A stretch of 64,000 nucleotides of DNA from an uncultured Gammaproteobacteria bacterium (GCA_964544275.1 CAZIZX010000002.1:2056-66055); one strand, 5' to 3'. Positions 1 through 22,600 are shown, numbered from the stretch's first letter. Notes: generated by a model not told the origin, from the sequence alone. Numbers and translations are program-made.

Positions 1-2953
1 GAAAGTAAGTATTGTTTGAGAAGGTTTGAGCTCCTGCCCAGGTATTGGCGTTAGCTAGATTGAGGGACAGTTGATTACCAGAGTTGGTGAGGGTGGAGTT
101 GTAGAAGACGGCAATGGTTCGGCCAACACCGGTACCACTGATTGTAATGCCAATGCCAGGAGTTAAAGTGGTTAAAAAGCTACCAGTTTGACCAATACCA
201 ACAAAGCCAGTAGAAGGGATGCCATTGAGGTAGTTGGCATTAAGATTAGTTACCAGATTAGTAGAACCAACAGAGACGAAGGTGGCACCAACAGAGAAGT
301 TGGCATTGGTTCGGACATTAGTAGCAGTAAGACTGATACCAGTACCTAAGATGTTGGTGAGATAAGAGGAATGACCAAAGGTAACGTTACCATTGTTACC
401 CATGAAGAGTGGGGATTTAACAGCAGTGGAAGCAGTTAGGGTATTGCCGACAGAGAGAGAGTTGCTAAAGACAGAGTTACCAGTGACGCCAATACCATTG
501 GAACTGACGAAGAGATTATAGGTAGCATGAGTAGTTCCAATACCGAGTTTAGTGGTGACAGTTTCACCATTAATATGAAGTCTGTAGAGAGGATTGGTGG
601 TGTTAATTCCAACGTTGGAAGCAAAGTAGGCTGTACCGCCAACATTTAAAGTGTTGGTTAAATTGGTTGTGCCACTAATCCCAATGCCATTAGTAAAGGT
701 GTGTAGTCCAGTCCAAACAGGAGTGTAGCCAAGGTTTAACCTAATATCGTGATTGACCAAGGTAATACCAATAGAGGCAGTATAGGTGCCGCCGATGCCT
801 GAGGTATTAGCTGGTATCCAAGAGGTATTACCGGAAGCGTCGGTTTGGAGAATATATCCCGATTGAGCACCTTGGGGGAGAGTGAGGGTGCCGCCGATAT
901 TGAGATTAGTGGTAATGTGAGCATTACCACTAATGTGAAGTTTAGCTTGAGGATTGGTGGTGCCGATACCTAAGTTAGTACCGTCGGCCCAAAGGTTGCT
1001 GGATTCGAGAATGATCTTGCCGGCATTAAAAGTTCTTAGAGTTAAATTACTGGAATTAAAAGGTTCGCCGGCTTGAAGGTAGAGGGGAGCACTGGATTTG
1101 ATATAGGATGCTGTTTGATTAGTAAAAAGTAAGTCATGGGACAGAGAGACATCACCACTGCTAGTAAAGGAAGAAGGCAGATTGAAAGTAGCATTGGTAT
1201 CAGTAATGTCAACCAGAGTGTTACCGGCGGTATCACCAATACGGAGAAGGGAACCGCTGCCGACCAGGTGAAGACGAGAGGTGGGAGAAGTAGTACCTAA
1301 GCCAATATTGTTGAGGAAGTAGGCAGGAGCAGTCCAGGTATTGGTAGAGCCGAGATTGAGTTCGAGAGTATAAGGGCCGGAGCCAGAACGGATGAGGGTG
1401 GAGTTAGTGGCGCTGTTGACAAAAGGAAGATTACTTATGGTGTAACCGGCAAGTTGGTTAGCATTGATAATGCCGGTGCCGGCGAAGGTTAGTGAGGCGC
1501 CGGTGCCAATTGTCATTAGGGCTTGGGTGTTGGTGCCGGTAGTGATACCGGAGAAGGGAACTGAAGAGGCGCCGACACTGCTTGAGGGAGAGACCCAGAT
1601 GGGGGATTGACCAGGTCCGCGGGTTTGAAGGATGTAACCATTGGTACCAGGATTGAGGTTGGTTAGGTTTGATCCATTTCCATAGATAATTGATCCAGTT
1701 GTAGCGTTTAATCCGGCTAATAAATTTAATTCGGAAGCCGAGGAGGTGACGATGGTGCTACCGATTGATATATTTTGAGTGAGTAGGGTGGAACCAACCT
1801 GGAGGTTTCTAAAGACATTGGTATCGCCGTAGGCGTTGACAGAGAAACGGGATTGGAGTTGGGTGGTACCGATATTGAAGTTTTGAAAGTCGATAAAGTT
1901 GTAGCTGCGGTTGGTGTTGCGGATTTCACCCTGAAACAAATTACCTGAAGCTAAATTAGCATTGGAGGCATAGATAAAACCGCCAACTCCGGAAGGGGTG
2001 TTGCCTTCGGTAGTAAGTTTGATGACACCGTTGGCGTCGGGATTAATTTCAATGTTGCCTCCGGAGCCGTCATTGGCTTTGAGTAGTAAAGCTTCGCCTT
2101 TGAGGGCAAATATACCATTATCGGAATAGATGGAGGGACTTTCTTCGCCCAGGTAGATATCACCACTATCACCGATGACTAGCACAGTATTTTTTAGACC
2201 GCTAGCAGATGGAGGGAGACCTTGTAAGGTTTCTGAGTTTAGGGCGTAGGCAACGGTGGCGATTTGCTGGCGTTTGTCCATGGGTTCACCGCCAACGGCG
2301 ATGTCGAGCCAGACTTCGGCGTTTTCGGAAAAAACTTCCGGGGGGATTTCGTCTCCATGGGTCTTGCCGATAATTACCGAGAAGATACCGTTGTCGTCGG
2401 GATGAACGATGGTGCTGCCAATGCCGTTGCCGGTGCCGTAATCAGTCCAAGAATCATAAAGCGGAGGATCACCCATACCGGTAGTGCCGATATCGTAGAG
2501 CTTGAATTGAATGGCGGTGGGAGAGGTTATCGGATTGCCAACCCGGTCGGTGAGACGACCCTGGAAGGAGAGTTGGCGTCCGGGACGGGTCATTTCGGAA
2601 CTGGATGAGTAGGCTAGTTCTTGTTTGGCTTTAAGGTATGTTTGAGTGTAGATACCGACACCGAGGGCAGAAATAATTATGAAAATAAGGGCGCTTAGTA
2701 AATATTTATTAAAATGCCTACCGGGTAGTTTGGAGTCGGGAGTTATAGGATAAGAGGTTTGAGTTGTCGGGTTATAGCTTATAGGTTGAGAGGTGACGGT
2801 TTTGGGTAGGAAAGATTTTTTTTGGAGGAATTTTTTGAAAGAGACGAGAGAAGAAAGTTTTCTTTTGATTGAAGCATCAGATAAGCTCTGAGACTTGAGA
2901 AAGTCTGTATATTTGTTTATTTGATCTTGGTTTAATAGTTGATCAAGTTTCAT
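1..2953 (-). CDS. Giant repetitive cell-surface protein, partial (C-terminus lies beyond window position 1). N-terminal integrase-type SAM-like segment, single TM anchor, then Thr/Gly/Asn/Ser-rich beta-solenoid-like repeats.
   Basis: The reverse frame is open from the ATG (complement of 2951-2953) to position 1. It is missing from the ORF track because its stop codon is outside the window. Translation: MKLDQLLNQDQINKYTDFLKSQSLSDASIKRKLSSLVSFKKFL..., then TM LLSALIFIIISALGVGIYT, then recurring units such as LHISGNAHITTNLNIGG and GYILQT(D/R)xxGxxxW(I/V). Its start overlaps the upstream gene's stop by 11 nt. The + strand ORF 2264..2608 is an antisense shadow. Confidence 0.7.
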   Translation of the reverse strand, partial: MKLDQLLNQDQINKYTDFLKSQSLSDASIKRKLSSLVSFKKFLQKKSFLPKTVTSQPISYNPTTQTSYPITPDSKLPGRHFNKYLLSALIFIIISALGVGIYTQTYLKAKQELAYSSSSEMTRPGRQLSFQGRLTDRVGNPITSPTAIQFKLYDIGTTGMGDPPLYDSWTDYGTGNGIGSTIVHPDDNGIFSVIIGKTHGDEIPPEVFSENAEVWLDIAVGGEPMDKRQQIATVAYALNSETLQGLPPSASGLKNTVLVIGDSGDIYLGEESPSIYSDNGIFALKGEALLLKANDGSGGNIEINPDANGVIKLTTEGNTPSGVGGFIYASNANLASGNLFQGEIRNTNRSYNFIDFQNFNIGTTQLQSRFSVNAYGDTNVFRNLQVGSTLLTQNISIGSTIVTSSASELNLLAGLNATTGSIIYGNGSNLTNLNPGTNGYILQTRGPGQSPIWVSPSSSVGASSVPFSGITTGTNTQALMTIGTGASLTFAGTGIINANQLAGYTISNLPFVNSATNSTLIRSGSGPYTLELNLGSTNTWTAPAYFLNNIGLGTTSPTSRLHLVGSGSLLRIGDTAGNTLVDITDTNATFNLPSSFTSSGDVSLSHDLLFTNQTASYIKSSAPLYLQAGEPFNSSNLTLRTFNAGKIILESSNLWADGTNLGIGTTNPQAKLHISGNAHITTNLNIGGTLTLPQGAQSGYILQTDASGNTSWIPANTSGIGGTYTASIGITLVNHDIRLNLGYTPVWTGLHTFTNGIGISGTTNLTNTLNVGGTAYFASNVGINTTNPLYRLHINGETVTTKLGIGTTHATYNLFVSSNGIGVTGNSVFSNSLSVGNTLTASTAVKSPLFMGNNGNVTFGHSSYLTNILGTGISLTATNVRTNANFSVGATFVSVGSTNLVTNLNANYLNGIPSTGFVGIGQTGSFLTTLTPGIGITISGTGVGRTIAVFYNSTLTNSGNQLSLNLANANTWAGAQTFSNNTYF

Positions 2954-3569
2954 AAGGCTTATGAGCCAGTATATTTTTTAGCCAATTAAGCCCGGATTTA
3001 TTTTTTTCAGTGCTCACGCGTTGTGCTTCGCTTACATGATTGTGCTCTGAAAAAATAAATACCTGGTTATTATCGTTTTTGTGTTGTTTGGCCCAGGTGA
3101 GGTATTGGTGAATATCATTGATATAGTTTTTGATAGTTGTTGAAGTTTTTTTGTGCTGGAGAAGGTAGTTTTGGTAACGGGAAATTAGGCTGTCCAGGTC
3201 GGTGGTTTGGGGTGAGGCTAAGTTTTTCTTTTGTTGTTTTAGAAATGATTTGACGGGGTTTTGAGAAATTATGTTTTGATCAATGGCAAATTGGCAGAAT
3301 AGAGAAAGGCTTGCTAGAAACCTTTTGGAGTTTTTTTGGTTGTAAATTTGGAGGATATAAGCGTTTATGAGTTGTGAGGAAAAGAGATGTTTGGGGTCAT
3401 CGGCGATATCAGCCAGGAGAGTGGGATTGGTTGATTTTGTATCAGTTGATTGAGCGGTGGTGGAAACAAAGTTGAGGTACTTGTTGGTGTCGGCCAAGTA
3501 GTTTCGAATTGTGTTTTTATTATAGTTTTTGCTTTTGAGCCAGTTTTGGTAAGAGTGAATGAAGGTCAT
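2943..3569 (-). CDS. Protein made of two tandem phage-integrase N-terminal SAM-like (core-binding) modules, with no catalytic domain
   Basis: 208 aa. Two copies of the XerD/integrase N-terminal pattern (..TIRNYLADTNKYLNF.. and ..TIKNYINDIHQYLTW..). No R-H-R-Y catalytic region is present. Confidence 0.5.
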   Translation of the reverse strand: MTFIHSYQNWLKSKNYNKNTIRNYLADTNKYLNFVSTTAQSTDTKSTNPTLLADIADDPKHLFSSQLINAYILQIYNQKNSKRFLASLSLFCQFAIDQNIISQNPVKSFLKQQKKNLASPQTTDLDSLISRYQNYLLQHKKTSTTIKNYINDIHQYLTWAKQHKNDNNQVFIFSEHNHVSEAQRVSTEKNKSGLNWLKNILAHKPYET

Positions 3570-4350
3570 GGGCAGGGGTGAGAGTTATCTCCAAAGCCAC
3601 ATGAAGCAAGTGGCGATGATTAAGAAGGGAACCAGCTTCTCCAGCATCGGAGATAAACTTTTAGCTTTAGAATTATATTTTTTATACATGTTTATATGAT
3701 TTTTTTTGGCGCTTGCCAGTTTTTATAACTAATATATTTATCTACTATAAAAAAAAGCCTGTCAACAGGCACTTTTGAGCTAATTATTGATATGTTTTGA
3801 TAGTATGATTTGATTGATTATTTACCGATATTTATTTGCGGTAAAATTTCACAAGCTTTTACACGGGTGGTACACCTACTTGCAAAATATTACAAAATGG
3901 TTGAATATGGATAAAAATAGGTAGAGAGTGAAAATCAGGAATGCGGAGAAGTGCGGAATATAATAAATGTTTCTAATTGATATAGAAATAAAGTATTTAA
4001 CAGGACGGAGTGTGGTCGGGTTCGAGGCAGAACGGAACAGTAAAAATGATGGTTTAATTGTTGGTCGTAGACCTGGAGTAGAGGCGAGGTGTGGACAATG
4101 AGTGTATCTAAATAAAACAAACGGGGAAAATTGGTTTGTGTGTTGGTTGAGGTGGATTCTGCAATGTGATTATCCGGTGAACGGGTAAGTGTGGAGTGGG
4201 AATAGTTAATAAATTCAGTAATATAGAGAAAAAGTGGTTAATGTCTTTGTTAGCAGAAGCAAGCGGTAGTTGTTAAATTAGACATAAATTGGTTGTTTTG
4301 GAGAACAGCTATTGATTTTTGGGGATAAATGAATTAAATTTAGATAGTTT

Positions 4351-4767
4351 ATGAATAAAAATACTTTGATGGTAGTGGGTGGAATAGTATTTGGTTTGGT
4401 GGGATTGTATTTTATTGCCAGTGAAGCAGTGCCCCGAGTGATGGTGACAATGACTCGGGCAGCGCCGGAGAAAAATATAGATTTGCAGAGCTCTCATATT
4501 ATAGGTGAGAAGTTACTGGCGAGAGCAGATGGGAAAGAGGCATGTGTTATTAATGTTTTTATCATGGATAAAAATGGAATGGGAGTGGCTGGGAAGAGGG
4601 TAGAATTGACTGGAGCAAAAGAGGCGAAGACTTTGAATGAGATTACTGACAAAAACGGAAAAGTGAGTTATCAAGTTACTTCAGCGATTGAAGGTCAGTT
4701 TAAGTTGAGTGCGAGTGTTGAAGGGGTGCCGATGGGAAAAGAACTGACGGTGACGTTTAGGGACTGA
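4351..4767 (+). CDS. Small membrane-anchored Big_1-like (bacterial Ig-like) domain protein
   Basis: 138 aa. N-terminal hydrophobic anchor, then ..VINVFIMDKNGMGVAGKRVELTGAK..TDKNGKVSYQVTSAIEGQFKLSASVEG, which is an invasin/Big_1-like beta-sandwich pattern. Paralogous to the protein at 11411..11827. Confidence 0.6.
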   Translation: MNKNTLMVVGGIVFGLVGLYFIASEAVPRVMVTMTRAAPEKNIDLQSSHIIGEKLLARADGKEACVINVFIMDKNGMGVAGKRVELTGAKEAKTLNEITDKNGKVSYQVTSAIEGQFKLSASVEGVPMGKELTVTFRD

Positions 4768-4788
4768 TTACATAAGGAGAAGTAAGAG

Positions 4789-7700
4789 CTAATTGAATGA
4801 GACGGCGCCGTTGTTGTAGATGATTTTGATTTGTTCAGAGGTGAGAGGGTAGTTGTAAATGCGGATGTCATCGATTTGGCCGTTGAAGTTTTGGTTATAA
4901 ACCCTGCCAAATGCCGATGCCGCGCTATAATCTTGGATGCCAAGACCGGTGTGTGTGATGTTTTTGTCAAGTTTTCCGTTGATGTAGAACCGGCAGCCCA
5001 CTCCTCCTTCAATAACAAAAGCTACGTGTACCCACTCGTTTGCTGTTATAGAAGAATTTGATTCAGGCCAGTAGTTTACTCCTCCGGTAATATCTCCTAT
5101 CATTAGTCTCAGTCTCCGGTTGCCAGCATTATCCCGTACTTGGAAGTAGTGATAGCCAGCCATATATTGAGAAAATCCGTTAGCAATTGTTCCTGATTCA
5201 TGTGATTTTATCCAGAAGCTTGAGGTCGAAGATCCGTACGAGCCTCCATAGAGTGCCGGGTTATTTAATCCTTTGCCATTGAGGTTTACTTCGTCGTCGA
5301 TTCCATCAAAATTTATGCTGGAGTTTAGTTTTCCGTTTTGGCCATTTCCCCAAGCGGTAGCAGGAATGTCGCAGGTGCCAACACTAACTTGGGTGCCACC
5401 GACACCAACATTGAGGGTGCCGTGATAGTTATTGCCGGAAGAATCATGGATGGTGGTACCCTGACATTCATCTGCTTTCCAGTGAGCAATGGGAGCGCCG
5501 TGGTTATAGTCGTAAGCGATTTGGGCAGGAGTGCGGGCGTAATTGTAGATGCGAACATCGTCAATAGTACCGTTATATGAGTTGTTTTCCCAGACATTAT
5601 TTCCGATGTTTAGTTCATAGGCCCAGTTTCTAAGTCCGTTTTCGAAGTAGTCAGAATCAATATAAATACCATTCAGGAAGAGGGATCCGGTTGAAGTGGT
5701 GGTATCAAAAACGAAAGATGCGTAATACCATTGACCAAAATTTATTGAAGTTGAAGCAGATTCCCATCCACCATTTCCGTTTTGTAGGGTATAGCCAACT
5801 GTTCCGTTGTCGTTTACATTTAGGATAGACACACTACTTCCTCCACTAACCCCAGAACCAAGGAGGCTGGCACTTTTTGTATTTGGTTTAAACCAGACAT
5901 GAGCAGTAAAAGAGGTGTTGTTGCCAATGAAATTAGACATGCTGCTTATGGCTCGAATGTAATTAGAGTCACCGCCGTCAAACTGAACAGCGGCACCATT
6001 ATGGCCGGTGGTCCAAAAAGGGCTGGAGTTGCCGATACCAAAATTTCCATGCCTGTTGTTACCACTGGTGTCAAAAGCAGTAGAGCCAATATTTTCTTCA
6101 AATTTCCATTCAGCTATGGGGGGATCACAGTGAGAAGTATCACCAGGGATACAGTAGTCAAGAGAAGTGGTAGTACCACCGATGTTTTGGGTAGAAGAAC
6201 CCATGACAAAAGCAGAACCCTGATTCATGTCAAGTTTGATTTGGTCTTGAGTGAGAGCATAATCGTAGATTTTGACTTCGTCGAGATAGCCGTAGAGGGA
6301 TTGTTCGGTAATGGTGGAACTGTACCAGGTGTTGCGACCTAATTGGGGTACAATTAGAATATTTTGGTTTGAACGACTAGAGATATCGCTTTGGCCATTC
6401 AGATGACCATTGATAAAAAATTGACCAGTACCGGTGCGATTGGCGACGTAGACAACGTGATACCACCGACCCGGTTCTAGAGTTGAACTAGAATCATGAA
6501 CCCACCCAGTATAGGTGGCGCCGGTGTAACACCGAGCCGATAAGCTTCTTGAAGAATTGATTCCAAATTGAAAACTGTCGGTTGCTCCAGTACTAACAAT
6601 GCCGCCTCGATATGCATCATCGGGAGGGTTTGGCCGGATGTAAATCCAAGTGGAGACTGAGAAATCGGAGGTACCGATTTGAATATTACTTCTGCCTGTG
6701 TGATCTCCATTGCCATTAAAACTTAAAGCTTTACCGAATTTACCTTCTATCCAGGAAGGTGATAAAAGGTTAATGTCGAGACTAGGACCGATGGTGCCAG
6801 AATTTTTGGCAATAGAACCAAAACCGTCGTCAAGACGCCAGTGAGTGATGGGAGGGGAGAGCTGTGAGGTTCCTAGGGGAGAGCCGAGAATAGCCGAAGA
6901 ACCTTTAGATGTAGAAATGCCGGAGAGTCCGTTGTTGTAGTCGGTTAGAATTTGTTGCGGGGTACGGGTGTAGGAATAAATTTTTACTTCGTCAATGAGA
7001 CCGTCAAATTTGTAATTATTAAGGTAAGTGTTGGACCATTGTCCTACTAATATTTTGTCCAACCTAAAGTCTACTTGTTTTGAGAGTGTCCACTCGCCGT
7101 CTTTTTTTCCATTTATAAAAAACGTTACGGAGTTTTGGTTATGTTTATAAATTAATGTTATGTGTGTCCAGGTATTAGCTGTGATGGTATAAGTACTTTG
7201 TTTTGAATTGTATTCTCTTGTTCCATCGGTGTAACCAATTGATATTGAAAATTTGTTTCCATTTTGGTTGATACCAATATTTGAGGTGCTGGAGTGGTTG
7301 TGTGTAGTTAATATGCCGCGTAGGCCACTTGTAATATGTGGGTAGACCCAGGTTGAAAATGTTTGATCACCATTTAATAGAATATTGCCATTACTTCTAG
7401 TGTAATTGTTTGATGTTGAATCAAAATATAAACAATTATTGGATATACAATTTTCTCCAGTTTGCCAAGTGGCGCCAGTAATCGTACCGTGATTGATACC
7501 ACTGGAATCATAAGCTGTAGTTCCCACTCCTTCATCAAATTTCCAGTGAGCAATGGGGGCAGGGGAAAGTTCTTCGGACTGGGGAGTAGATTCGGGATCG
7601 GAAGATGCATATTTTCTCAACCTAACATTGTCAATGTCGATAGAGCAGGTTGTGCCTGGTGACAAATAAATTCTTGTTGGTAGATGTAGAGAGGAGCTTC

Positions 7701-11410: not shown

Positions 11411-11827
11411 CTAATAGAAAACGACGGAGACGGTTTGGGGAACTTGGAGGCCATTGGATTGGGCAGAGACAGTGAAGCGGCCGGTAATGGAGGAAGAAAG
11501 ATCAAAAACAGCTTTGCCTGAATCGTCGGTGATAGGTTGAATAGGGTGGGCGTTAACGGTTGGAGGTAAATTGAGAGAGACATTTTGGTGGGGAATACCG
11601 AGCCCGCGGGAGTCGAGGAGAAAGACGGTGATGCGAACTAACTCTTGGCTATCGGCCTTGGCTTGAAGGGGTGAGGCAAAAAGATAGGAATTGGAGATGG
11701 AGCCGGCGGAGGTGGGTTGGCTAACTTGGGCCTGACCAAAAAAGACGGTGGTTTGCATTAAAAGATAAAGAGAGGCAAGCAGGGAGAGAACTAGAAATGC
11801 TATTAAGGCTATGATTCCGGGTTTCAT
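11411..11827 (-). CDS. Small secreted Big_1-like Ig-domain protein (paralog of 4351..4767)
   Basis: 138 aa. Signal/anchor, then ELVRITVFLLDSRGLGIPHQNVSLNLPP..TDDSGKAVFDLSSSITGRFTVSAQSNGL. Collinear similarity to the 4351 protein. Confidence 0.6.
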   Translation of the reverse strand: MKPGIIALIAFLVLSLLASLYLLMQTTVFFGQAQVSQPTSAGSISNSYLFASPLQAKADSQELVRITVFLLDSRGLGIPHQNVSLNLPPTVNAHPIQPITDDSGKAVFDLSSSITGRFTVSAQSNGLQVPQTVSVVFY

Positions 11828-11830
11828 TAA

Positions 11831-12682
11831 TTAATTGTAACGGATATTGGCAAGAGATACATGACGGATGGTCGGAAGATAACGAGGTGTGGGTTGAGGA
11901 AGAGTTTTTATTATCAAGTAGACAAAAAGAGTAAGAGTGAGAATAAAACAGGGGAGAAAAATAATCAGGAACTTGTGCGCCAGCCAGAAGAGATAGAGAA
12001 TAGAAGGAAGGCTGTAGTTTAGGGTATTTGATTTGGGGGTGTTGTTGTCTTGATAGAGAGCGGTGGCAAAGAGCCGGTAGTTGCTGGAATAGACGGTTGG
12101 CAGAGAGAAGCTGTAATTGCCAGATTCATCTGTTTTGATTGTAAATTGGGGTAAAGAGTAAGCATAGGTTTCTTTGGGGAAAGTCAAGGGATTTTGCTTG
12201 TCTTGGTAGAGGTAAATGTTGACAAAACTGTCAGGAATGGATTGACCTGAAGCCAGGCTGGTGGAATTGGCTTTGATATTATCGGAGTCGATGGTAATGG
12301 TGGGTGGTAGGAGGATGGGTCCGATATCGGTATGGATGTTTTCAGGAGGTGGTGGAGGGATACAGACGGGGTGGGAGCGGCGGGAGTGATTATCAGTGGA
12401 GGTGAGGCAAAGATCGGAAGGATTTTCGGGCAGGATAGACTTGTCAAATTCAAAGTAACCCGCTTGGTTGGTGTAAGTGACATCAAAAACCCGAGGAGAG
12501 CTAAGCTCAACCCGAGAATTGGGAGTGGTGAAGCCGTGAATGGTGACTTGATTCTTGCCAATGAAGGCTGATATCCGAACTGAAGGTGTTACTTCAGCTT
12601 GGGTGGAAGGAGGAGAAACTAAGATGAAAATAGTAGATATGGCTAAAAGTATGGCAGACCAGAATCTTTTAGGTACGATCAC
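11831..12682 (-). CDS. Secreted Ig-like surface protein with C-terminal TM anchor
   Basis: 283 aa. N-terminal signal peptide, beta-rich Ser/Thr/Asn-rich body, C-terminal hydrophobic helix (LIIFLPCFILTLTLFVYLII). Confidence 0.5.
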   Translation of the reverse strand: MIVPKRFWSAILLAISTIFILVSPPSTQAEVTPSVRISAFIGKNQVTIHGFTTPNSRVELSSPRVFDVTYTNQAGYFEFDKSILPENPSDLCLTSTDNHSRRSHPVCIPPPPPENIHTDIGPILLPPTITIDSDNIKANSTSLASGQSIPDSFVNIYLYQDKQNPLTFPKETYAYSLPQFTIKTDESGNYSFSLPTVYSSNYRLFATALYQDNNTPKSNTLNYSLPSILYLFWLAHKFLIIFLPCFILTLTLFVYLIIKTLPQPTPRYLPTIRHVSLANIRYN

Positions 12683-13652
12683 GGTATTTATTTTTTAGAT
12701 TTTCCAGATCAGGTTGATGAGGAGGCAGAGGTTTGTTTTTGTTGGTCCGATCCTTGTTCTTCAGGATAATGACGAGAAGAGCTATGAGAGCAATGAGGGC
12801 CATGAGGAAGGTGATGAGTCTCCAGGGAATGACCCAGAAGAAGACGGTGGCGGTTAATAGTCCGCCAGTAGTACCATAGGTGGCATTAACTTGAGCCTGA
12901 TAGCGACCAAGGAGCCATTTTTTGTCGAGTTGGTTAATAAATTCTCTTTGGGTATAGGGGAAGATATTGGTTTCGGTCAAGGGAAGTTGAGCGGTAGTAC
13001 CACCAAGCATATTTTTGATGGTGATTTGTCCGTTGGGGGTGATATGAACATCGGAAAGGTTTTCGATAATAGTTTGGATGTCTATGGGTCCGAATTCAGA
13101 AAAGCCAGGTACCGTTAGGTCAACAATGCGGGCATCCTGTTTGATATCTCCGGGAACGGTAATATAGATGAGGCTGCCAACATTGGTTTCGATAGCGGCG
13201 CCGGTGGTATCGAGAAAGACATCAGTTTGAGGATTGTGGAGGACCATAGCATAATGTCCACCAGGAAGGGCGTCAATTGGAGCAATAACGGTTAAGATGA
13301 GAGACTTGGTCTCACCCGGTTTAAGTTTGAGTTGAGTGGGAGAGACCTGAATCCAGGAACTAGCGGCCCAACGATTATCTTCTTCGGTAACGCCGTCAAT
13401 CTGAACAGGGGTACCGATAGTATCGGTGACGACGAAATCCTTGACATTGGTGGTGATAACTTTTTCGGTTTGAGATTCGTTCCGGACCTTGATCTCTTTG
13501 CTGACATGTTGGCCGGGCTCAACAGTGATTTCCAGTCGTGGAGGTATAGCCGATAGACCCAGAGCCGACTGAGCTTTGACATGGGGTGTTAGAAGGAAAT
13601 AAGTAGCTGATAGGAGTAGGAGGATGAGGCTGGTTTTGAATATATTTTTCAT
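12669..13652 (-). CDS. DUF916/DUF3324-like (CscA-like) cell-surface protein with C-terminal TM anchor
   Basis: Likely start at the internal MKNIFK (complement of 13650-13652), which precedes a signal peptide. The longer ORF start is 13748. The C-terminal block ..LGRYQAQVNATYGTTGGLLTATVFFWVIPW + TM matches the DUF3324 pattern (G-x-Y ... F-x-I + TM). Paralog of 18014..18880. Confidence 0.5.
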   Translation of the reverse strand: MKNIFKTSLILLLLSATYFLLTPHVKAQSALGLSAIPPRLEITVEPGQHVSKEIKVRNESQTEKVITTNVKDFVVTDTIGTPVQIDGVTEEDNRWAASSWIQVSPTQLKLKPGETKSLILTVIAPIDALPGGHYAMVLHNPQTDVFLDTTGAAIETNVGSLIYITVPGDIKQDARIVDLTVPGFSEFGPIDIQTIIENLSDVHITPNGQITIKNMLGGTTAQLPLTETNIFPYTQREFINQLDKKWLLGRYQAQVNATYGTTGGLLTATVFFWVIPWRLITFLMALIALIALLVIILKNKDRTNKNKPLPPHQPDLENLKNKYRDRT

Positions 13653-13663
13653 TGTTTTTTGGA

Positions 13664-15145
13664 TTAAAATGTGGCGGTAGCAGTATAAACAACTTTTGTT
13701 TCGTAGTTGCCGGCAGCTTGAAGGGTGTTGGCAACGATCCGGTAGCACATATAGATACTTTCGACAGCAGTAGGAGTGCTGGCATTGCTCATAATATTTT
13801 GGGCATTGACGAAACCGATGCCGAAGGGTTTGGCGGTGAAAGTAGTGCCGCTGGTGTTGTATTGAAAGGGAACGGTGGTGGCGTTGATATTCTGAATTGA
13901 ATAGCCAAAGCCAGATTCGGCCACATCCGAATGCCAGCGGGCGGCGGTAGTGACAGAACAGGTATAAGTAGGATTGTCGCAGTTAGTATCAGGGATGGTG
14001 GTACCGGTAGATATATTTGATAGATAACCGGATTCGTAGACGGTAACGGCGTAACCATTAGTGGCGTTAGTAGTAGCGCTAAGTCTTTGGGCTAGATTAT
14101 TACCGGTACTGCCGATGGAGAGTGAACCGAAAGCGACGGTAGTGGCGGTGGTGTTGTTGGCGCTGGCACCGAGAACATTACCGCAACGGGTCTGGCCGGA
14201 GCCGACGCCGGAATTGTCGATAGTAAAGGTAATAGTAGGATCAACCGTGGCGGTGACCCGAACCGATTCGACAACGGCGATACGACCTGAAGCGGTGTCG
14301 GCATCGATGACGGCACCAGTGGAATCCAAGTGGCGAACGAAGAAATTATAAACATCGGCAACGCCTTCGGAGGAGTAGGGGCGGCTGACTGAAGAGCTGG
14401 GATTGATCAGTTGACTACCGGTAGATAAATCGCGACCGATGCCGATACTGGTACCGATGTCGACCGGATTGTTAGCACCGGCGGCGAGAGTACAAGTAAT
14501 AGAGTGGTAAAGATTGCTACCAATAGTAACATTGGTGACTCCGATTGAGGCAGTGCCAAAAGGACAGGTGATATCGGCTGGTTTGAGACGGGTACCGATG
14601 CCAGTGTTGGTGGAGCCAACGTCGGAGCCGAGATCGAAGCCCTGCTGGTCGGGCATACCGTCAGCTGCCAGTTCCCCGACTCGGGAAGTAGCTTTTATGA
14701 GTAGTTGCCAGGCGCCGCCAGTGACAGAGCTTTTGGGAGTGAAATAGGTGGTGTGGATGGCTGATCGGGTAGCAACGATGATGCTAGTGTTGAAAGAATT
14801 ATTGTGAGCCAAGGTACCGCCGATTTGAAAGACGGCGGTGTTGCCGATACCGCTGACTGTGTAGTGGTCAAGTCCAGTGACTCCAGTTTTGGCGATACCG
14901 ATGACATCGCCGGCAAAGAGATTGGAGGTGGTATTGGACGGATTGCCGGAGGTCTGGATGGTTAGAAACGAACTGCCGGCAGTATTGCCGGTTCCAAGAC
15001 GGGCAAAGTAAGACATTTGAGAGTTGGACAGGACATTGCGGACACTGGTGGGTGGTACTGATCGAATATTGCTTTTGGGTGCCAGTAAAGAAATGGCTCC
15101 AACAGCAGTTAGTACGAGTAAGGTCCTAACCGTTAATTTTTTCAT
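13664..15145 (-). CDS. Secreted surface protein with WxL-like C-terminal domain (ends ..AAGNYETKVVYTATATF)
   Basis: 493 aa. Signal peptide MKKLTVRTLLVLTAVGAISLLAP. The C-terminal ~170 aa (TIPDTNCDNPTYTCS..W..GFGYS..AGNYETKVVY) are homologous to the C-terminus of 18883..19645. Confidence 0.5.
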   Translation of the reverse strand: MKKLTVRTLLVLTAVGAISLLAPKSNIRSVPPTSVRNVLSNSQMSYFARLGTGNTAGSSFLTIQTSGNPSNTTSNLFAGDVIGIAKTGVTGLDHYTVSGIGNTAVFQIGGTLAHNNSFNTSIIVATRSAIHTTYFTPKSSVTGGAWQLLIKATSRVGELAADGMPDQQGFDLGSDVGSTNTGIGTRLKPADITCPFGTASIGVTNVTIGSNLYHSITCTLAAGANNPVDIGTSIGIGRDLSTGSQLINPSSSVSRPYSSEGVADVYNFFVRHLDSTGAVIDADTASGRIAVVESVRVTATVDPTITFTIDNSGVGSGQTRCGNVLGASANNTTATTVAFGSLSIGSTGNNLAQRLSATTNATNGYAVTVYESGYLSNISTGTTIPDTNCDNPTYTCSVTTAARWHSDVAESGFGYSIQNINATTVPFQYNTSGTTFTAKPFGIGFVNAQNIMSNASTPTAVESIYMCYRIVANTLQAAGNYETKVVYTATATF

Positions 15146-18013: not shown

Positions 18014-18880
18014 TTAAGAGGTTCGGTGTCGAGGTAGTTTGTGGTGGCGATAAAAGGTTAGAGCAAGCAAGGAAAGTGGCAGCAGAAGAATTAGTAGAGA
18101 AAAAGGGAAGACGTAGAAGGTGGTAGTGACGGGTTTGGCGGAGTCGGTAGCGGAGAGAGAGAGGCTGGCAGTGTAAGCTCCGGGCCAGAAGGGTGGTTTG
18201 AGGGTGCAGGTGTGAGCGGGAGTGCAAAGGATAGAGCGGGAGTGGTTGGCCAAGACGTTTTGGGGAGATAGCTGCAATTGGACCATTTCCCGGTTATCTT
18301 TGTAAACTGTGATTTTACCTTCAGTTTTGAAGAAATTACCGGTCTGGTTTTTGATGAGGGCGGAGAGATTGACAGGAGTAAGGAAGCAGTCTTTGATTTT
18401 GGGCAGGGCAATAAAGTCGAATATTTGAGCAGAAAGAGGTAGTTTTTCGGTATCGGAGACAGAGAAGAGAAGGTGAGAGCCGATTTTGGCGTGAGTGCTG
18501 GATCTGGCTGAGTCAGGATTGATTTGGTTAGTTTGGGCTTGATTGACAAAAAGGGTGTAGTAATAATCTTTTTTGAGAGTATTTGAATCGGGCTTGATCT
18601 TGAGGACCAGTTGTCTTTTTTCGTCGGGTTTTAGGGCGAAAGTATCTCCCAATTTCAGGTCGGCGTTGTTGAGGGAAAATTGGATGTTTTCACTTTCGGG
18701 GACATGATCGTAGGAAAGCGAGCCGTCCGATCCGGAAGGTTGCCAGGCTTCGACGGAGGTGTTTAAGTAAAGGGTGTTGCCGGAGTTGTTGGTTAAGTCA
18801 TATGCCTGAAGGACAGTGGCACCGGGTTTGATGATAAATTCGGATTGGGCTGGATTGATGGTGAGACTGTAATCGGCCAT
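18014..18880 (-). CDS. DUF916/DUF3324-like (CscA-like) surface protein with C-terminal TM anchor (paralog of 12669..13652)
   Basis: 288 aa. ..LKPPFWPGAYTASLSLSATDSAKPVTTTFYVFP + TM FSLLILLLPLSLLALTF has the same G-x-Y...F-x-V + TM architecture. The N-terminal region is similar to the 12669 gene. Confidence 0.5.
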   Translation of the reverse strand: MADYSLTINPAQSEFIIKPGATVLQAYDLTNNSGNTLYLNTSVEAWQPSGSDGSLSYDHVPESENIQFSLNNADLKLGDTFALKPDEKRQLVLKIKPDSNTLKKDYYYTLFVNQAQTNQINPDSARSSTHAKIGSHLLFSVSDTEKLPLSAQIFDFIALPKIKDCFLTPVNLSALIKNQTGNFFKTEGKITVYKDNREMVQLQLSPQNVLANHSRSILCTPAHTCTLKPPFWPGAYTASLSLSATDSAKPVTTTFYVFPFSLLILLLPLSLLALTFYRHHKLPRHRTS

Positions 18881-18882
18881 GG

Positions 18883-19645
18883 TTAATATTTGGGAACGGC
18901 AATAAAAGTAATGGAATTGGAATAATTACCGGCTGATTGGAGAGGAGAAATGTTGGCTTTGTAAGTGATACGGGCAGAGTGCTGTTCAACAGGTGAATCT
19001 TCGGACATGATTATTTGGCTGGTTTCGGGTGGAGTGGCGGAGGAGTTGGCAAATTGGCGAAAATAGCTGGAGTCGGGAAAGTGTTGGGAAGTGCCAATAC
19101 CGATGGGAGAAAGAAGGTGGTTGATACCAGAGGCATTGAAGCCGAAGCCATAAGTAGCGCCGTTGGTCCAGACGCCGGAGACTGATTCGGAGCAGGTATG
19201 GGTATCGCAAGTAGTGTCGGGGATGGTAACTCCGGAAGCGAGGGAGAGAGGGTGGTTTTGGAAGGTTAGGATTTGGTAGCCTTGGCCAGAAGGAGTAGTG
19301 ATGGTAATAATGTTGGAGTCGGTGGAGCCGATACCGGGAGTAAGAGTGCCGAGGTTGACTAAGAGGTTATCAATTTCAAAAGAAAAATCACTGCGGAAGG
19401 AGTCGTAAATGTATTGGAAGCCGGATTTGAGAGTGTAGCCATTATTGTCAAATTGGCCGGGGGCATTTTGACCAATAGTATCGGTGAGGTTGTAGTTGGA
19501 AGAAGACTTGCTGCCGGAGGTAATGTTAAAGTTGCCCCAATCTATTTGGTAGGAAGGGGAAGTAAAAGTCTGACTGAAAACGAGTTGGGTAAAAAGGAGG
19601 AAGAGTGGAGTGGCGGCGATAAAAAAAATTAATTTAAGTTTCATC
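18883..19645 (-). CDS. Secreted surface protein with WxL-like C-terminal domain (ends ..SAGNYSNSITFIAVPKY)
   Basis: Start at MKLKLIFFIAATP (complement of 19643-19645), a signal peptide. The ORF-track start is 19842. The C-terminal domain is homologous to 13664..15145 (TIPDTTCDTHTCS..W..GFGFN..AGNY). Confidence 0.5.
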
Positions 19646-20281
19646 AGTTTCCCGGTCGATTTGACGGGTGAGATTTTGGGAAGAATCGAGTAATGATTGA
19701 GAGATTTTTTTGATTTTGACAAGTTCATTTTTTTGATTGGGGGTGAGTTTGGGATTGGATTGAAGGAGAGAGACAGAATCAAGGATGTCAAGCAGGTGGT
19801 TTTTGAAATCAAGAGAAAGGAAAAAGAAGATGTCGGTTTCATTCTTGGCGAGACTGTTGGTCATTTTGAGATTATTCAGGTATTGACGGCCGACGTACCA
19901 AGCCAGGGGTGAAATGAAAACGAGTGATAGAAGAGGGAGGAGGGAAGAAGTGGAGTTGAGAGATTGGGATAGGAGTATTATGAGAAAAAGAGAGTAAGCT
20001 AGGGTGGTGCTAGGCGGATGGTGAAAGGCCAGGACAAATAAGAGGAAGTAAATTAAGAAAAAGAAAGGTGAGCTGAGACCCGAGGTGCCAAAGACAATGA
20101 GGTTGATTAAAAGGGAGACGAGGAATAAATTAAGAGTTTGGCGGCGAAGAGAAACGGTTAACAGGACAATTGAGATAAGGGCAATAATTTGGGGTAGATA
20201 ATGAGAAAGCGGGGTGAGAGAAAGGAGAAACCCAAAAAGGGAGGTGAGCGACAATAATGAAATAACTGTTAGTTGTGACAT
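19634..20281 (-). CDS. Polytopic membrane protein, function unknown
   Basis: 215 aa. About 5-6 predicted TM helices, then a polar C-terminal tail. Overlaps the downstream gene by 12 nt. Confidence 0.45.
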   Translation of the reverse strand: MSQLTVISLLSLTSLFGFLLSLTPLSHYLPQIIALISIVLLTVSLRRQTLNLFLVSLLINLIVFGTSGLSSPFFFLIYFLLFVLAFHHPPSTTLAYSLFLIILLSQSLNSTSSLLPLLSLVFISPLAWYVGRQYLNNLKMTNSLAKNETDIFFFLSLDFKNHLLDILDSVSLLQSNPKLTPNQKNELVKIKKISQSLLDSSQNLTRQIDRETDET

Positions 20282-20345: not shown

Positions 20346-20927
20346 ATGGTGTTGAATAAATTACATAAGTTTAGCTGGCTGGATTTGGTTTTGTTGGCTG
20401 GTTTGGGGTTGATCGTGGTTGGGTTGGGGATGAGTATACGAAACAGTAGCAAAACGGCTGAGGTGGAAATAATTAAGAGAGGGAAAGCGGAAGAAGCAGA
20501 AGTTGATAGTGATATTATGGTTGACATAGCAGGAGAGGTGATAAAACCTGGAGTTTACAAATTGAGGCGAGGGATGAGAATAAATGATGGGTTGGCGGCG
20601 GCGGGCGGGTTATCGGCTGGGGCAGATAGGGAATGGGTAGAAAAAAGTTTAAACAGGGCGGAGTTGGTATATGATGGACTGAAAATATATATTCCAAAAC
20701 AAGGGGAAGTGATGGCCAGTGTGGCTGAAGCTGGCGGCAAAATCAGTATTAACCGATCCGGGCTGGAAGAGCTAAATAAATTGACGGGGATCGGGCCAGC
20801 TTTGGCCCAGAGAATAATTGACTATCGGGAGAAAATGGGTGGATTTAAAAATGTAGAAGAGATAAAGGCGGTAAGTGGAATTGGAGAAAAGATGTATGAA
20901 AAAATCAAAGACGAGATTAGTTTGTGA
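20346..20927 (+). CDS. comEA: Competence protein ComEA (DNA receptor, helix-hairpin-helix)
   Basis: 193 aa. TM anchor, SLBB-like middle, C-terminal tandem HhH (..LNKLTGIGPALAQRIIDYREKMGGFKNVEEIKAVSGIGEKMYEKI). Confidence 0.85.
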   Translation: MVLNKLHKFSWLDLVLLAGLGLIVVGLGMSIRNSSKTAEVEIIKRGKAEEAEVDSDIMVDIAGEVIKPGVYKLRRGMRINDGLAAAGGLSAGADREWVEKSLNRAELVYDGLKIYIPKQGEVMASVAEAGGKISINRSGLEELNKLTGIGPALAQRIIDYREKMGGFKNVEEIKAVSGIGEKMYEKIKDEISL

Positions 20928-21852
20928 GGAGTGGGGGATAAACTTTGGTTTGGTGGTAGCGATATATTTGATGTATAGGTTTATAGATAAGCAGGGTTTG
21001 ATTGATGTGGTTTGGCGAGCTTTGCCGGACAGGGAAGCCGGTTTGTTGTCGGGAATGCTTTTGGGGGTGAAGGATTTTGAGGGGCAGTTTTATAATGATT
21101 TAAAGGAGGTGGGGTTGGTTCATCTGGTGGTGGCCAGTGGAGCTAATGTGGCTTTGATAACCAGGATGGTGACTGAAAAGCTGGCAGGTTGGCTGGGTAG
21201 GAAAAGGGCTGTCGTGTTGGGCTTGGCAGCGGTTTGGGGATATGCCCGAATGGTGGGGTGGGAGGCGCCGATTATTAGAGCAGCGATCTTGATTTCGATT
21301 TTTTATTGGGGCCAATTGTTGGGAAGGAAATACAATGTGTTGAGGGGTTTGGGATTGGCGATAATAGTTATGATGGTGGCGAATTTCGACTATGTGACTT
21401 CAGTGAGTTTTTGGTTGAGCGTGGTGGCTTTTGGGGCAATTGCGATAAGAAATAATGAGGGACAAGGAAAGATGTGGCTGGTAGACGATTTAAAAACTAC
21501 AGGTTGGGTAAGTTTGTGGGTTAGTCCAATATTGGCCAAAGTATTTGGGGAGTTTAGTTTGGTGGGACCAATGATTGGCGCATTTTGTTTGTTTCTGGTG
21601 GAATATATTAGTGTGGTGGGAGGAGTGGGGGTGTTAGTTGGGTTAGTTTGGCCGTTTGGAGGAAGGTTGATATTGATGTTTTTGTATCCATTTTTAAAGT
21701 ATTTAGTTATGGTTTCTGAGGGCGTTGGTAGTTGGTCGTGGATAACTGTAGATTTGAATTTTAATTGGTATCTTTTGGCGGGATGGTATGTGGTACTTTT
21801 GTATGTATTACTGAGGAGAGTTAATGAAAACAAGAATCCTGCTTTTATTTAG
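20875..21852 (+). CDS. comEC: ComEC/Rec2 competence (membrane channel) domain protein, the N-terminal half of a split comEC
   Basis: ..LVHLVVASGANVALITRMV..WGYARMVGWEAPIIRAAILISIFYWGQLLGRKYNVLRGLGLAIIVMM.. is the Competence domain (PF03772) pattern. The ORF-track start overlaps comEA by 53 nt, so the real start may be downstream. Confidence 0.75.
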   Translation: MELEKRCMKKSKTRLVCEEWGINFGLVVAIYLMYRFIDKQGLIDVVWRALPDREAGLLSGMLLGVKDFEGQFYNDLKEVGLVHLVVASGANVALITRMVTEKLAGWLGRKRAVVLGLAAVWGYARMVGWEAPIIRAAILISIFYWGQLLGRKYNVLRGLGLAIIVMMVANFDYVTSVSFWLSVVAFGAIAIRNNEGQGKMWLVDDLKTTGWVSLWVSPILAKVFGEFSLVGPMIGAFCLFLVEYISVVGGVGVLVGLVWPFGGRLILMFLYPFLKYLVMVSEGVGSWSWITVDLNFNWYLLAGWYVVLLYVLLRRVNENKNPAFI

Positions 21853-22600
21853 TGCAATTTTTTTGGTGGCGGCATATTTGATAGCGATGCCTGACGGGAG
21901 GGCGAGAATAATATTTTGTGATGTGGGACAAGGTGATGCTATATTGGTGAGCCGGGGATTTGAACAGATATTGGTGGATACCGGGACTGACAATAAAAAA
22001 GTGTTGAGGTGTTTGGACAAGTACCTAGCTTTTTGGGATAAGAATATTGATTTGTTAATTATTAGCCATGAGGATAAAGACCATTTCGGAGGATTGGCGG
22101 ATGTGGAAAAGAATTATAAGATAGGAGAGATAGTATATGGGGTGAGTCAGAGTAAAGAATTTGAACAAAAAAGTAATGCAAAACAAGTGAGGAGAAATGA
22201 TATTGTCAGAATGGGGGATATATATTTTGAGGTGGTAAATCCGGAGGAAAAATTCATAAGTAATTTTGGAGATAATGATAATTCGGTAGCTGGTATCTTA
22301 AAATATAAAGATATAAGAATATTGTTGACAGGAGATGTGTCAGAGGAGGTGGAGAAGATGTGGGTGTGGAGAGAAATGCTGACGGAGCGAATTGATGTGT
22401 TAAAAGTAGCGCATCATGGGTCGGGCCATTCGACCAGCGGTGAGTTTTTGGATTTAATCAAACCAATTGAGGCGGTGATTAGTGTAGGGAAGAATAGTTA
22501 TGGACATCCAAGTGGAGAAGTGTTGGAGAGACTGGAAAAGAGAGGGGTAAAGGTGAGGAGAACAGACGATGGAGGAGACGTGGTTTTCTTTATTGATTAA
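21824..22600 (+). CDS. comEC: ComEC C-terminal metallo-beta-lactamase domain protein (second half of split comEC)
   Basis: ..IIFCDVGQGDAILV..DLLIISHEDKDHFGG..LLTGD..KVAHHGSGHS..SVGKNSYGHPSGEVL is the MBL-fold HxHxDH-type motif series of the ComEC C-terminus. It begins 29 nt before the upstream ORF ends, in another frame. Confidence 0.8.
   Translation: MKTRILLLFSAIFLVAAYLIAMPDGRARIIFCDVGQGDAILVSRGFEQILVDTGTDNKKVLRCLDKYLAFWDKNIDLLIISHEDKDHFGGLADVEKNYKIGEIVYGVSQSKEFEQKSNAKQVRRNDIVRMGDIYFEVVNPEEKFISNFGDNDNSVAGILKYKDIRILLTGDVSEEVEKMWVWREMLTERIDVLKVAHHGSGHSTSGEFLDLIKPIEAVISVGKNSYGHPSGEVLERLEKRGVKVRRTDDGGDVVFFID

Follow-up and report, generated by a model that had tools for sequence, protein, structure and literature searches.

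XerC/XerD and lambda Int contain a four-helix core-binding domain, described in Pfam by the SAM-like families Phage_int_SAM_1/4/5. ToxR/ToxS, TcpP/TcpH and CadC-type regulators cross the membrane once with their N-terminus inside (N-in), carry a cytoplasmic DNA-binding domain and keep their bulk outside; their operons also encode small accessory proteins. In Nanoarchaeum equitans, split genes are adjacent or unlinked open reading frames (ORFs) that form one polypeptide in relatives, and non-covalent assembly of their products is presumed. The ultra-small bacteria of the Candidate Phyla Radiation (CPR) live in attachment to hosts and represent much of the diversity of bacteria. We analysed a 64-kb stretch of DNA (the window) that, judging by its sequence, most likely comes from a Shapirobacteria-like CPR bacterium. 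At its beginning lies what is most likely a three-gene operon: the first gene encodes a 34-amino-acid (aa) membrane peptide, the second a soluble protein of 208 aa and the third a giant surface protein that spans the membrane once, in N-in orientation. We propose that the last two each carry half of one core-binding-type domain, and that the small protein docks on the giant one by completing it.

With XerC/XerD and lambda Int, the locus has in common the four-helix fold and its sequence signature. Here the domains are in tandem, tethered to a transmembrane (TM) helix and a giant ectodomain, devoid of a catalytic domain and, in this clade, split between two genes. The N-in single-pass topology, the DNA-binding-type domain inside, the bulk outside and the small operon partner recall ToxR-type regulators, as the first-pass annotation had suggested. 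Of that comparison the topology stands, with a basic fold of DNA-binding type inside; the fold itself is not that of ToxR, since only SAM-like families match and not the OmpR/PhoB-type winged helix. In place of a small sensor domain, our proteins expose a fibre of 2,000-6,000 aa as ectodomain, and DNA binding or regulation is putative here. As in N. equitans, two ORFs correspond to a single chain of relatives. The break in our case falls inside a small four-helix domain rather than between domains, and a tight overlapping pair is kept, in which a soluble chain is parted from a membrane protein. Finally, SPbeta YopR and the N-terminal domain of P4 integrase are core-binding-type domains that bind DNA without recombination (PMC8612738), an activity putative in our locus; they are soluble phage proteins, neither membrane-tethered nor split, and YopR retains a catalytic-like C-terminal domain. 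The ingredients are thus known (core-binding domain, membrane-anchored giant fibres, gene fission) and their combination is new to the literature searched: in full-text literature, we found no description of the SAM-like/TM/giant architecture.

Both genes lie on the minus strand. The 208-aa ORF occupies positions 2943-3569(-), with its TGA stop at 2943-2945. The giant ORF starts with ATG at 2953-2951(-) and meets no stop through the 984 codons up to the window edge, which are the only part of the gene inside the window. The reading frames bear out the 11-nt overlap described at first pass (2943-2953), the small-gene TGA falling 8 nt past the giant-gene ATG. The features of the pair, including those predicted with AlphaFold2 (AF2), are as follows.

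1..2953, minus strand: 5' part (984 codons) of the giant TM-anchored surface-protein gene; an ORF that runs past the window.
2249..2581, minus strand: juxtamembrane β-sandwich ectodomain (LSFQGRLTD ... ATVAYALNSETLQG); near-invariant in the alignment, strands in AF2.
2645..2704, minus strand: single TM helix (aa ~84-103), N-in signal anchor; from AF2 helix 79-112 and charge bias.
2816..2929, minus strand: helices C'D' (aa 9-46), second half of SAM-like domain 2; from Pfam SAM_1, AF2 and alignment with fused homologues.
2943..2953, minus strand: overlap with the geometry of translational coupling, the giant ATG lying upstream of the small-gene TGA; similar overlaps in most related loci.
2943..3569, minus strand: small gene, predicted soluble 208-aa SAM-like adaptor; from the ORF, 71 homologues and AF2.
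2946..3083, minus strand: tail of 46 aa, specific to the lineage; AF2 shows it disordered, and 2985-3065 is a hairpin-forming insert.
3084..3200, minus strand: helices A'B' (aa 124-162), first half of SAM-like domain 2; from Pfam SAM_1 and AF2.
3249..3566, minus strand: complete SAM-like domain 1 (aa 2-107); from Pfam SAM_1, Foldseek and NCBIfam.

The C-terminal module of the small protein (aa 129-170) matches Pfam SAM_1 at profile positions 1-43 of 83, that is helices A' and B'. The giant protein completes the profile: its aa 7-45 match positions 43-81, helices C' and D'. These ranges indicate one split domain and not two further copies. The first-pass annotation had counted three modules, two in the small protein and a third on the giant one. 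Both motifs of the small protein are indeed there, TIRNYLADTNKYLNF at aa 20-34 and TIKNYINDIHQYLTW at aa 145-159; the second belongs to the A'B' half only. The giant N-terminus, taken then for a third copy of the same pattern, corresponds to other helices: it aligns with the XerD segment ...ATSSARLLSAVRRLFQYL... and not with the LSENTLNAYRRDL helix, and in an alignment with homologues (A3) it falls on the C-D half of their complete domains. The count is therefore one complete domain and one split one.

Scored apart, the two halves reach 18.4 and 20.4 bits; the giant N-terminus alone, half of the profile, gives 15.5-20.4 bits, under the threshold of 22.3. Concatenated in silico, A'B' and C'D' match Phage_int_SAM_1 (PF02899) across positions 1-81 of 83 with 40.6 bits and an E-value of 3e-10. 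Comparison by hhalign of the A'B'+C'D' profile (33 loci) with the domain-1 profile gives 98.7% probability and E 2e-16, over all four helices. Both results lie far outside what chance would produce. Altogether, the profiles describe the predicted cytoplasmic side as two SAM-like domains, one complete and one split by the gene boundary exactly in its B-C loop.

The identity of the fold rests on several lines of evidence. As a whole, the small protein exceeds the Pfam gathering threshold (22.3 bits each) for Phage_int_SAM_5 (30 bits) and Phage_int_SAM_1 (28.6 bits), so that the profile search suggested at first pass came out in favour of SAM-like domains. Domain 1, tested alone, aligns with SAM_1 across profile positions 2-82 of 83, and has a lineage-specific loop insertion at aa ~36-62. 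With the NCBIfam XerC/XerD models, the alignment is limited to N-terminal positions 2-105 and reaches 35 bits, against cutoffs of ~330. The AF2 model of the small protein (mean predicted local distance difference test score, pLDDT, of 80.5) has domain-1 helices at aa 2-13, 18-41, 65-75 and 81-97 and a linker helix at 105-118. Helices A' and B' follow at 125-138 and 143-162, with pLDDT >90, and then the disordered tail, whose pLDDT is <50 at aa 169-186. Foldseek against PDB returned, as its top 16 matches, tyrosine-recombinase core-binding domains without exception (lambda Int, XerD, Brujita Int, IntI), over ~110 columns and with probabilities of 0.72-1.00, at least 0.85 in the top ten.

The small protein is basic (pI 9.6). 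Its 71 homologues, mostly 141-222 aa long, all terminate soon after the TIKNYINDIHQYINW helix (B'), and the tail is missing from most of them. The core-binding consensus residues (T..NY..D; R.L[AS]SL..F) are near-invariant family-wide. As had been noted from the start, no catalytic domain accompanies these modules: a Pfam scan of both proteins gave no Phage_integrase match, hence no C-terminal catalytic domain (R-K-H-R-H/W-Y). The small protein stops at aa 208 and the giant N-terminal part runs directly to the TM helix. The pair thus has the core-binding four helices of a tyrosine recombinase and not its catalytic part.

The best PDB sequence match of the small-protein profile is chain 14 of 9i5v (E 1e-4), a P. 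gingivalis 'RaiA' of ~400 aa. The match covers the N-terminal ~105 aa, and 34 residues are modelled in this ribosome structure. Evidently, the P. gingivalis 'RaiA' deposit carries a recombinase-type SAM-like N-terminal domain; with only 34 residues modelled, we set it aside as uninformative here.

In the giant protein, AF2 predicts helices at aa 9-21 and 26-45 with pLDDT 90-93, a disordered linker, the TM helix at 79-112 and a β-sandwich with strands at pLDDT 77-88. The helices of both proteins agree with the core-binding layout. Beyond the TM helix, the ectodomain continues for >800 aa, rich in Thr, Gly and Asn and in repeats, in line with the original description; full-length homologues measure from 1421 to ~6300 aa. 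In 135 family representatives, lysines and arginines flanking the TM helix average 2.64 on its N side as against 1.36 on its C side, with N exceeding C in 95 and the reverse in 17. The part before the TM helix is net positive in 131 of the 135, with a median charge of +12. Upstream of helices C'D', the short open frame offers no start codon but ATG 2953. A corresponding start (ATG, TTG or GTG), upstream of the TM helix and 28-30 codons ahead of an RKLSS motif, is conserved in 36 of 39 split loci, several times with a GAGG(G) Shine-Dalgarno-like motif before it. From these starts it follows that a cytoplasmic N-terminus exists, and the topology is N-in.

The ectodomain is likely tail-fibre-like, a view that comes from the sequences of homologues. 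The giant protein of locus L008 matches the PHROG tail-fibre family phrog_9942 (E 6e-11), and two fused forms from Levybacteria, L055 and L060, match Peptidase_G2. Phage tail fibres and the 'tail fibre-like protein' associated with pam operons are the corresponding known proteins; the second is likened to ours by description and by gene context, as our locus adjoins Pam-like pilin/chaperone genes (10.64898/2026.03.03.709456). For the juxtamembrane domain, Foldseek finds weak generic matches to immunoglobulin-like, Big-1 and phage minor-tail β-sandwiches; its dioxygenase and CBM48 matches are to a generic β-sandwich and were not used.

The split is not peculiar to this genome. We compared nine loci from an exact look-up and 56 species-level genome loci. 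A small gene followed by a giant gene starting with C'D' occurs in ~40 species-level Shapirobacteria or Woesebacteria loci, which answers the proposal to look for co-occurrence of the pair. Relative to the small gene, the giant one is in frame +1, +2 or 0; overlaps are of 11, 14, 17 or 20 nt and gaps extend up to 67 nt. Four pairs are in frame and parted by one stop codon, TGA or TAG (L018, L022, L026 and L043). The closest relative (L001, 75% amino-acid identity) has the identical 11-nt overlap, and so does a second, divergent lineage with the same split, L066. The same split with such varied junctions in ~40 genomes excludes sequencing error and argues against a common recoding mechanism; separate genes with translational coupling fit these data.

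Relatives encode the whole as a single ORF: L012 and L017, which are close, and L055, L056 and L058-L064 from Levybacteria, 1421 to >2191 aa long. These fused forms carry two complete domains, the TM helix and the same type of ectodomain in one chain. In L055 and L060, Pfam finds two full-length SAM_1 matches each. Other Patescibacteria have one complete domain ahead of the TM helix (P0079, P0083-P0086, P0096-P0098). In a neighbour-joining tree, weak and without support values, the Levybacteria fused forms lie outside the split clade, L012 is basal to the clade and L017 inside it. The two genes are thus a fission pair, with a contiguous ORF in relatives and separate starts in split loci. The SAM-like modules are under purifying selection: between the window and L001, the ratio of non-synonymous to synonymous substitution rates (dN/dS) is 0.13-0.21 for the SAM-like parts and 0.06-0.21 over the operon pieces.

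In L066:1630-2771, the giant gene is interrupted: a stop lies at 2484, and an ORF from 2550 carries on the ectodomain. Faulty assembly, a pseudogene or a further split may lie behind the interruption.

We propose that the small protein docks non-covalently on the cytoplasmic tail of the giant protein by rebuilding domain 2, and give this reading a probability of roughly 0.55-0.7. A docking arrangement had been among the ideas of the first-pass annotation; the data support it further than it was then put, in that each protein carries half of one domain for which relatives encode a single chain. Translational coupling of the two genes would ensure roughly 1:1 synthesis. The A'B' hairpin of the small protein would then pack on the C'D' hairpin of the giant one, restoring domain 2. 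Each fibre would thereby gain a basic cytoplasmic foot of tandem domains, like that of single-chain homologues. If so, this is a natural, evolutionarily validated case of a domain split within its fold.

The family to which the giant protein belongs is very large. A profile of the N-terminal 260-aa region, run against 1.84 billion representative proteins, retrieves 40,074 clusters at E<=1e-3, 11,986 at E<=1e-10 and 707 at E<=1e-30. Of the 144 top-ranking new representatives, the longest of which has 6,346 aa, 53 have one complete SAM-like domain, 38 have two complete domains, 38 begin with the C-half only, 13 have no domain detected and 2 show a mixed pattern. By these profile matches, one or two SAM-like domains, a TM helix, a β-sandwich and a giant fibre make up the predicted architecture of thousands of CPR protein clusters. 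A recombinase-type fold is thus placed on the cytoplasmic side of a very large CPR giant-fibre family. Databases label these proteins 'site-specific integrase' (PGAP) or 'hypothetical'; the first label is a misnomer, and the present reading corrects a systematic annotation error. Host sensing and attachment are poorly understood in CPR bacteria.

Upstream of the pair, the locus reveals a strongly conserved, unannotated micro-protein and a dedicated promoter-like element, followed by a divergent gene.

3585..3689, minus strand: unannotated 34-aa micro-ORF, MYKKYNSKAKSLSPMLEKLVPFLIIATCFMWLWR, first gene of the operon; from conservation of the ORF, tblastn and dN/dS.
3739..3765, minus strand: 27-nt promoter-like element TTGACAGGCTTTTTTTTATAGTAGATA, ~50 nt upstream of the micro-ORF; conserved across loci.
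4351..4767, plus strand: Big_1/Invasin_D3 protein, 138 aa, membrane-anchored; Pfam Big_1 E 1e-12.

The micro-ORF peptide is predicted to have a basic N-terminus and a C-terminal TM helix. Equivalents of 29-53 aa with the same pattern occur in ~40 loci and end 2-16 nt before the small gene or overlap it; tblastn detects the peptide in 37 loci, and small ORFs ending in a TM helix also precede some Levybacteria fused genes. Against L001, dN/dS is 0.056 at a synonymous divergence (dS) of 1.23. The exact 34-aa peptide is absent from the protein collection searched.

The 27-nt element, with consensus TTGACAGCCTTTTTCTAATAGTAGATA, occurs a single time in the window, against 0 expected by chance, and once per locus, on the same strand and at the same place, in 40 related loci. 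Nineteen of its 27 positions are 95-100% conserved, the would-be promoter spacer included, while the proteins encoded at those loci share just 35-45% identity. A 'terminator-like' hairpin at 3757-3770 is better read as the -35 part of this element. The palindrome in the -35 part varies across loci, and the idea of an operator palindrome was dropped.

Tentatively, we take the foot to bind DNA or another nucleic acid at the membrane. The suggestion is motivated by the strong core-binding similarity with its consensus residues retained and by the basic charge. It also draws on the fact that integrase N-terminal or core-binding domains can be repressors, as in YopR and P4 Int (PMC8612738), and on the near-invariant promoter element that the operon has of its own. 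This element would be the candidate target. With such a foot, a fibre that contacts the host would be connected with the nucleoid or with gene control, by a logic like that of ToxR, and in the split form the putative DNA-binding subunit would be detachable. The coupling of a host-contact fibre to the cell interior is thereby a testable hypothesis.

Several observations weigh against the docked, DNA-binding fibre foot. The complementation of domain 2 follows a logic of homology, and the Foldseek E-values for the core-binding fold are merely 0.1-1.5. In L054 and L057, which are relatives of L066, the small protein ends in A'B' and the next gene encodes a different TM protein without C'D'; a half-domain can thus persist without an adjacent partner, which is a caveat for obligate pairing. 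A basic region before the TM helix is expected from the positive-inside rule alone, and an abundant structural fibre would be an unusual transcription factor. Finally, the 984 giant codons of the window gave no Pfam or PHROG fibre match, and a PHROGs search with the window's two proteins (the giant as 984 aa) returned no match.

The downstream protein in L054:5926-7902 and in L057 has 470 aa and is TM/TPR-like. Its C-terminus, FKWWII, resembles the FNWLIVN of Levybacteria fused forms.

The two chains could also assemble in the same way into a foot that binds no nucleic acid, and serve as a protein-protein or lipid-facing scaffold that positions, oligomerises or inserts the fibre. Such a scaffold might work together with the 34-aa membrane peptide and with the Pam-like pilus machinery encoded nearby. 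We consider this role doubtful, and yet nearly as likely as DNA binding. The tiny TM peptide is always part of the operon, which adjoins Pam-like pilin/chaperone genes and Big_1/LamG surface proteins; a 'tail fibre-like protein' is reported to co-localise with the pam operon across CPR (10.64898/2026.03.03.709456). The family is very large and structural in appearance, and basic juxtamembrane regions are generic. On the other hand, if DNA binding had been lost, a similarity of 40-64 bits to true core-binding domains would be high, the core-binding consensus residues are near-invariant, and no partner protein was identified.

An extension of the DNA-binding foot is that the C'D' tail would hold the small protein at the membrane, and that host contact or load on the fibre would release or recruit it; it would then act on DNA, for example on the 27-nt element of its own operon. 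We deem such a detachable foot unlikely. If true, episymbiotic CPR bacteria would sense contact by a novel type of signalling, based on fragment complementation of a recombinase core-binding domain.

Less probable still is that programmed +1 frameshifting or stop-codon readthrough produces one polypeptide from both ORFs and no separate small protein. The giant frame is at +1 in most junctions; across loci, however, it may be +1, +2 or 0, and no slippery site is common to them, the A6 run just upstream of the window junction notwithstanding. Readthrough would suit the four in-frame loci with a single stop, except that these stops include both TGA and TAG, and that elsewhere gaps of 33-67 nt hold several stop codons. 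Synonymous divergence is suppressed across the junction, which speaks for recoding; against this, 36 of 39 loci have a giant-gene start at a fixed distance from RKLSS, in several cases preceded by a GAGG(G) Shine-Dalgarno motif.

The first-pass annotation had offered another reading, which sees in the SAM-like pieces the decaying remains of a tyrosine recombinase behind shufflon-like variation of the surface protein. We find it very improbable, although the fold has its origin in recombinases and variation systems typically act on giant surface proteins. All pieces are under purifying selection, and the same domains are integral to the N-termini of thousands of homologous giant proteins. No catalytic domain occurs in any of the ~55 loci. 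In the 64-kb window, tblastn with XerD gave no match at E below 0.3 and the Pfam-scanned ORFs showed no recombinase; a shufflon, with its linked recombinase and inverted repeats or cassettes, was not found. In L008, where the giant gene is complete, an unrelated TPR gene comes next and no cassettes do.

The A6 homopolymer near the junction might suggest that in this genome the split stems from a frameshift of sequencing or assembly, or marks a pseudogene. Sequence comparison effectively refutes this, given that ~40 independently assembled species-level genomes share the split with differing junction sequences and that the closest relative has the same overlap.

We return to the divergence at the junction. 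Between positions 3154 and 2735, which span helix B', the tail, the junction, C'D' and the linker, nucleotide identity with L001 is 90-98%, against 70-80% in the flanks. The dS values are 0.17 for the tail and 0.36 for giant aa 1-83, compared with 1.0-1.4 elsewhere. Possible causes are a recent recombination tract and an RNA or DNA element that overlaps the junction. A scan of 2800-4800 with Rfam gave no RNA family. The tail contains a hairpin-forming insert at 2985-3065(-), with arms TATTTATTTTTTCAG / CTGAAAAAAATAAAT and an RNA-fold z-score of -3.06. The window has a single copy of the insert, and so have all loci retrieved, so that an origin as a multicopy miniature inverted-repeat transposable element is unsupported.

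Further upstream of the operon lie surface-protein genes. The 138-aa Big_1 gene is divergently transcribed at the same position in 41 of 55 related loci, and beyond it come a LamG giant protein and secreted or TM-anchored proteins. The protein of 18883-19842(-) matches the NCBIfam CPR pilus PamT and Pam-pilin models at E 1e-10, below model cutoffs, and that of 13664-15145(-) weakly matches a Pam pilin C-domain. More broadly, the genes of 11411-15145(-) and 18014-19842(-) resemble the CPR Pam pilus system as a surface-structure cluster. Three of the proteins (12669-13748, 18014-18880 and 11831-12682) have signal peptides and C-terminal TM helices, fitting a PamC/PamD/PamR-like architecture, and a second Big_1 protein lies at 11411-11827(-). 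Homologues of the Pam-like cluster are found upstream of the SAM/giant operon in 13-27 loci. A preprint on the Pam pilus reports that across CPR lineages the pam operon is consistently co-localised with a 'tail fibre-like protein'; the preprint makes no mention of an integrase-like cytoplasmic domain or of a split partner (10.64898/2026.03.03.709456).

The remainder of the window is ordinary chromosome, with genes for DprA, ComM-like Mg-chelatase, ComEA and ComEC as well as LeuRS, ribosomal proteins L11 and L1, and NusG. A link of competence to the operon was considered and rejected, as these competence genes rarely lie <=6 kb away in other loci. ComEC itself consists of two overlapping ORFs(+) within 20875-22600, with a Competence domain at 20875-21852 and a Lactamase_B domain at 21824-22600, and may be another split gene of this genome.

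Homologues are annotated as Candidatus Shapirobacteria or Woesebacteria (Microgenomates, CPR). Many metagenome-assembled genome records with this CPR operon (L010, L012, L014, L019 and others) bear the title 'uncultured Gammaproteobacteria bacterium'; Candidatus Methanoperedens and Balneolaceae stand in the titles of one record each. Such non-CPR titles probably go back to mislabelled bins or contaminating contigs.

Finally, a near-identical peptide, SLKEGGSLKTAPFFKGSCPEPxEGLRGF, recurs in different genomes, in the giant linker of P0078 and in the domain-1 loop of the small protein of L045:4699-5250. The related strings RPVKGDVTK and SPVKGRSPQDRGVL appear in B'-C' tails, and similar oddities in the tails of L018, L019, L034 and L038. 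Such low-complexity peptides suggest small elements that insert in-frame into loops, and an in-frame insertion of this kind may have created the split.

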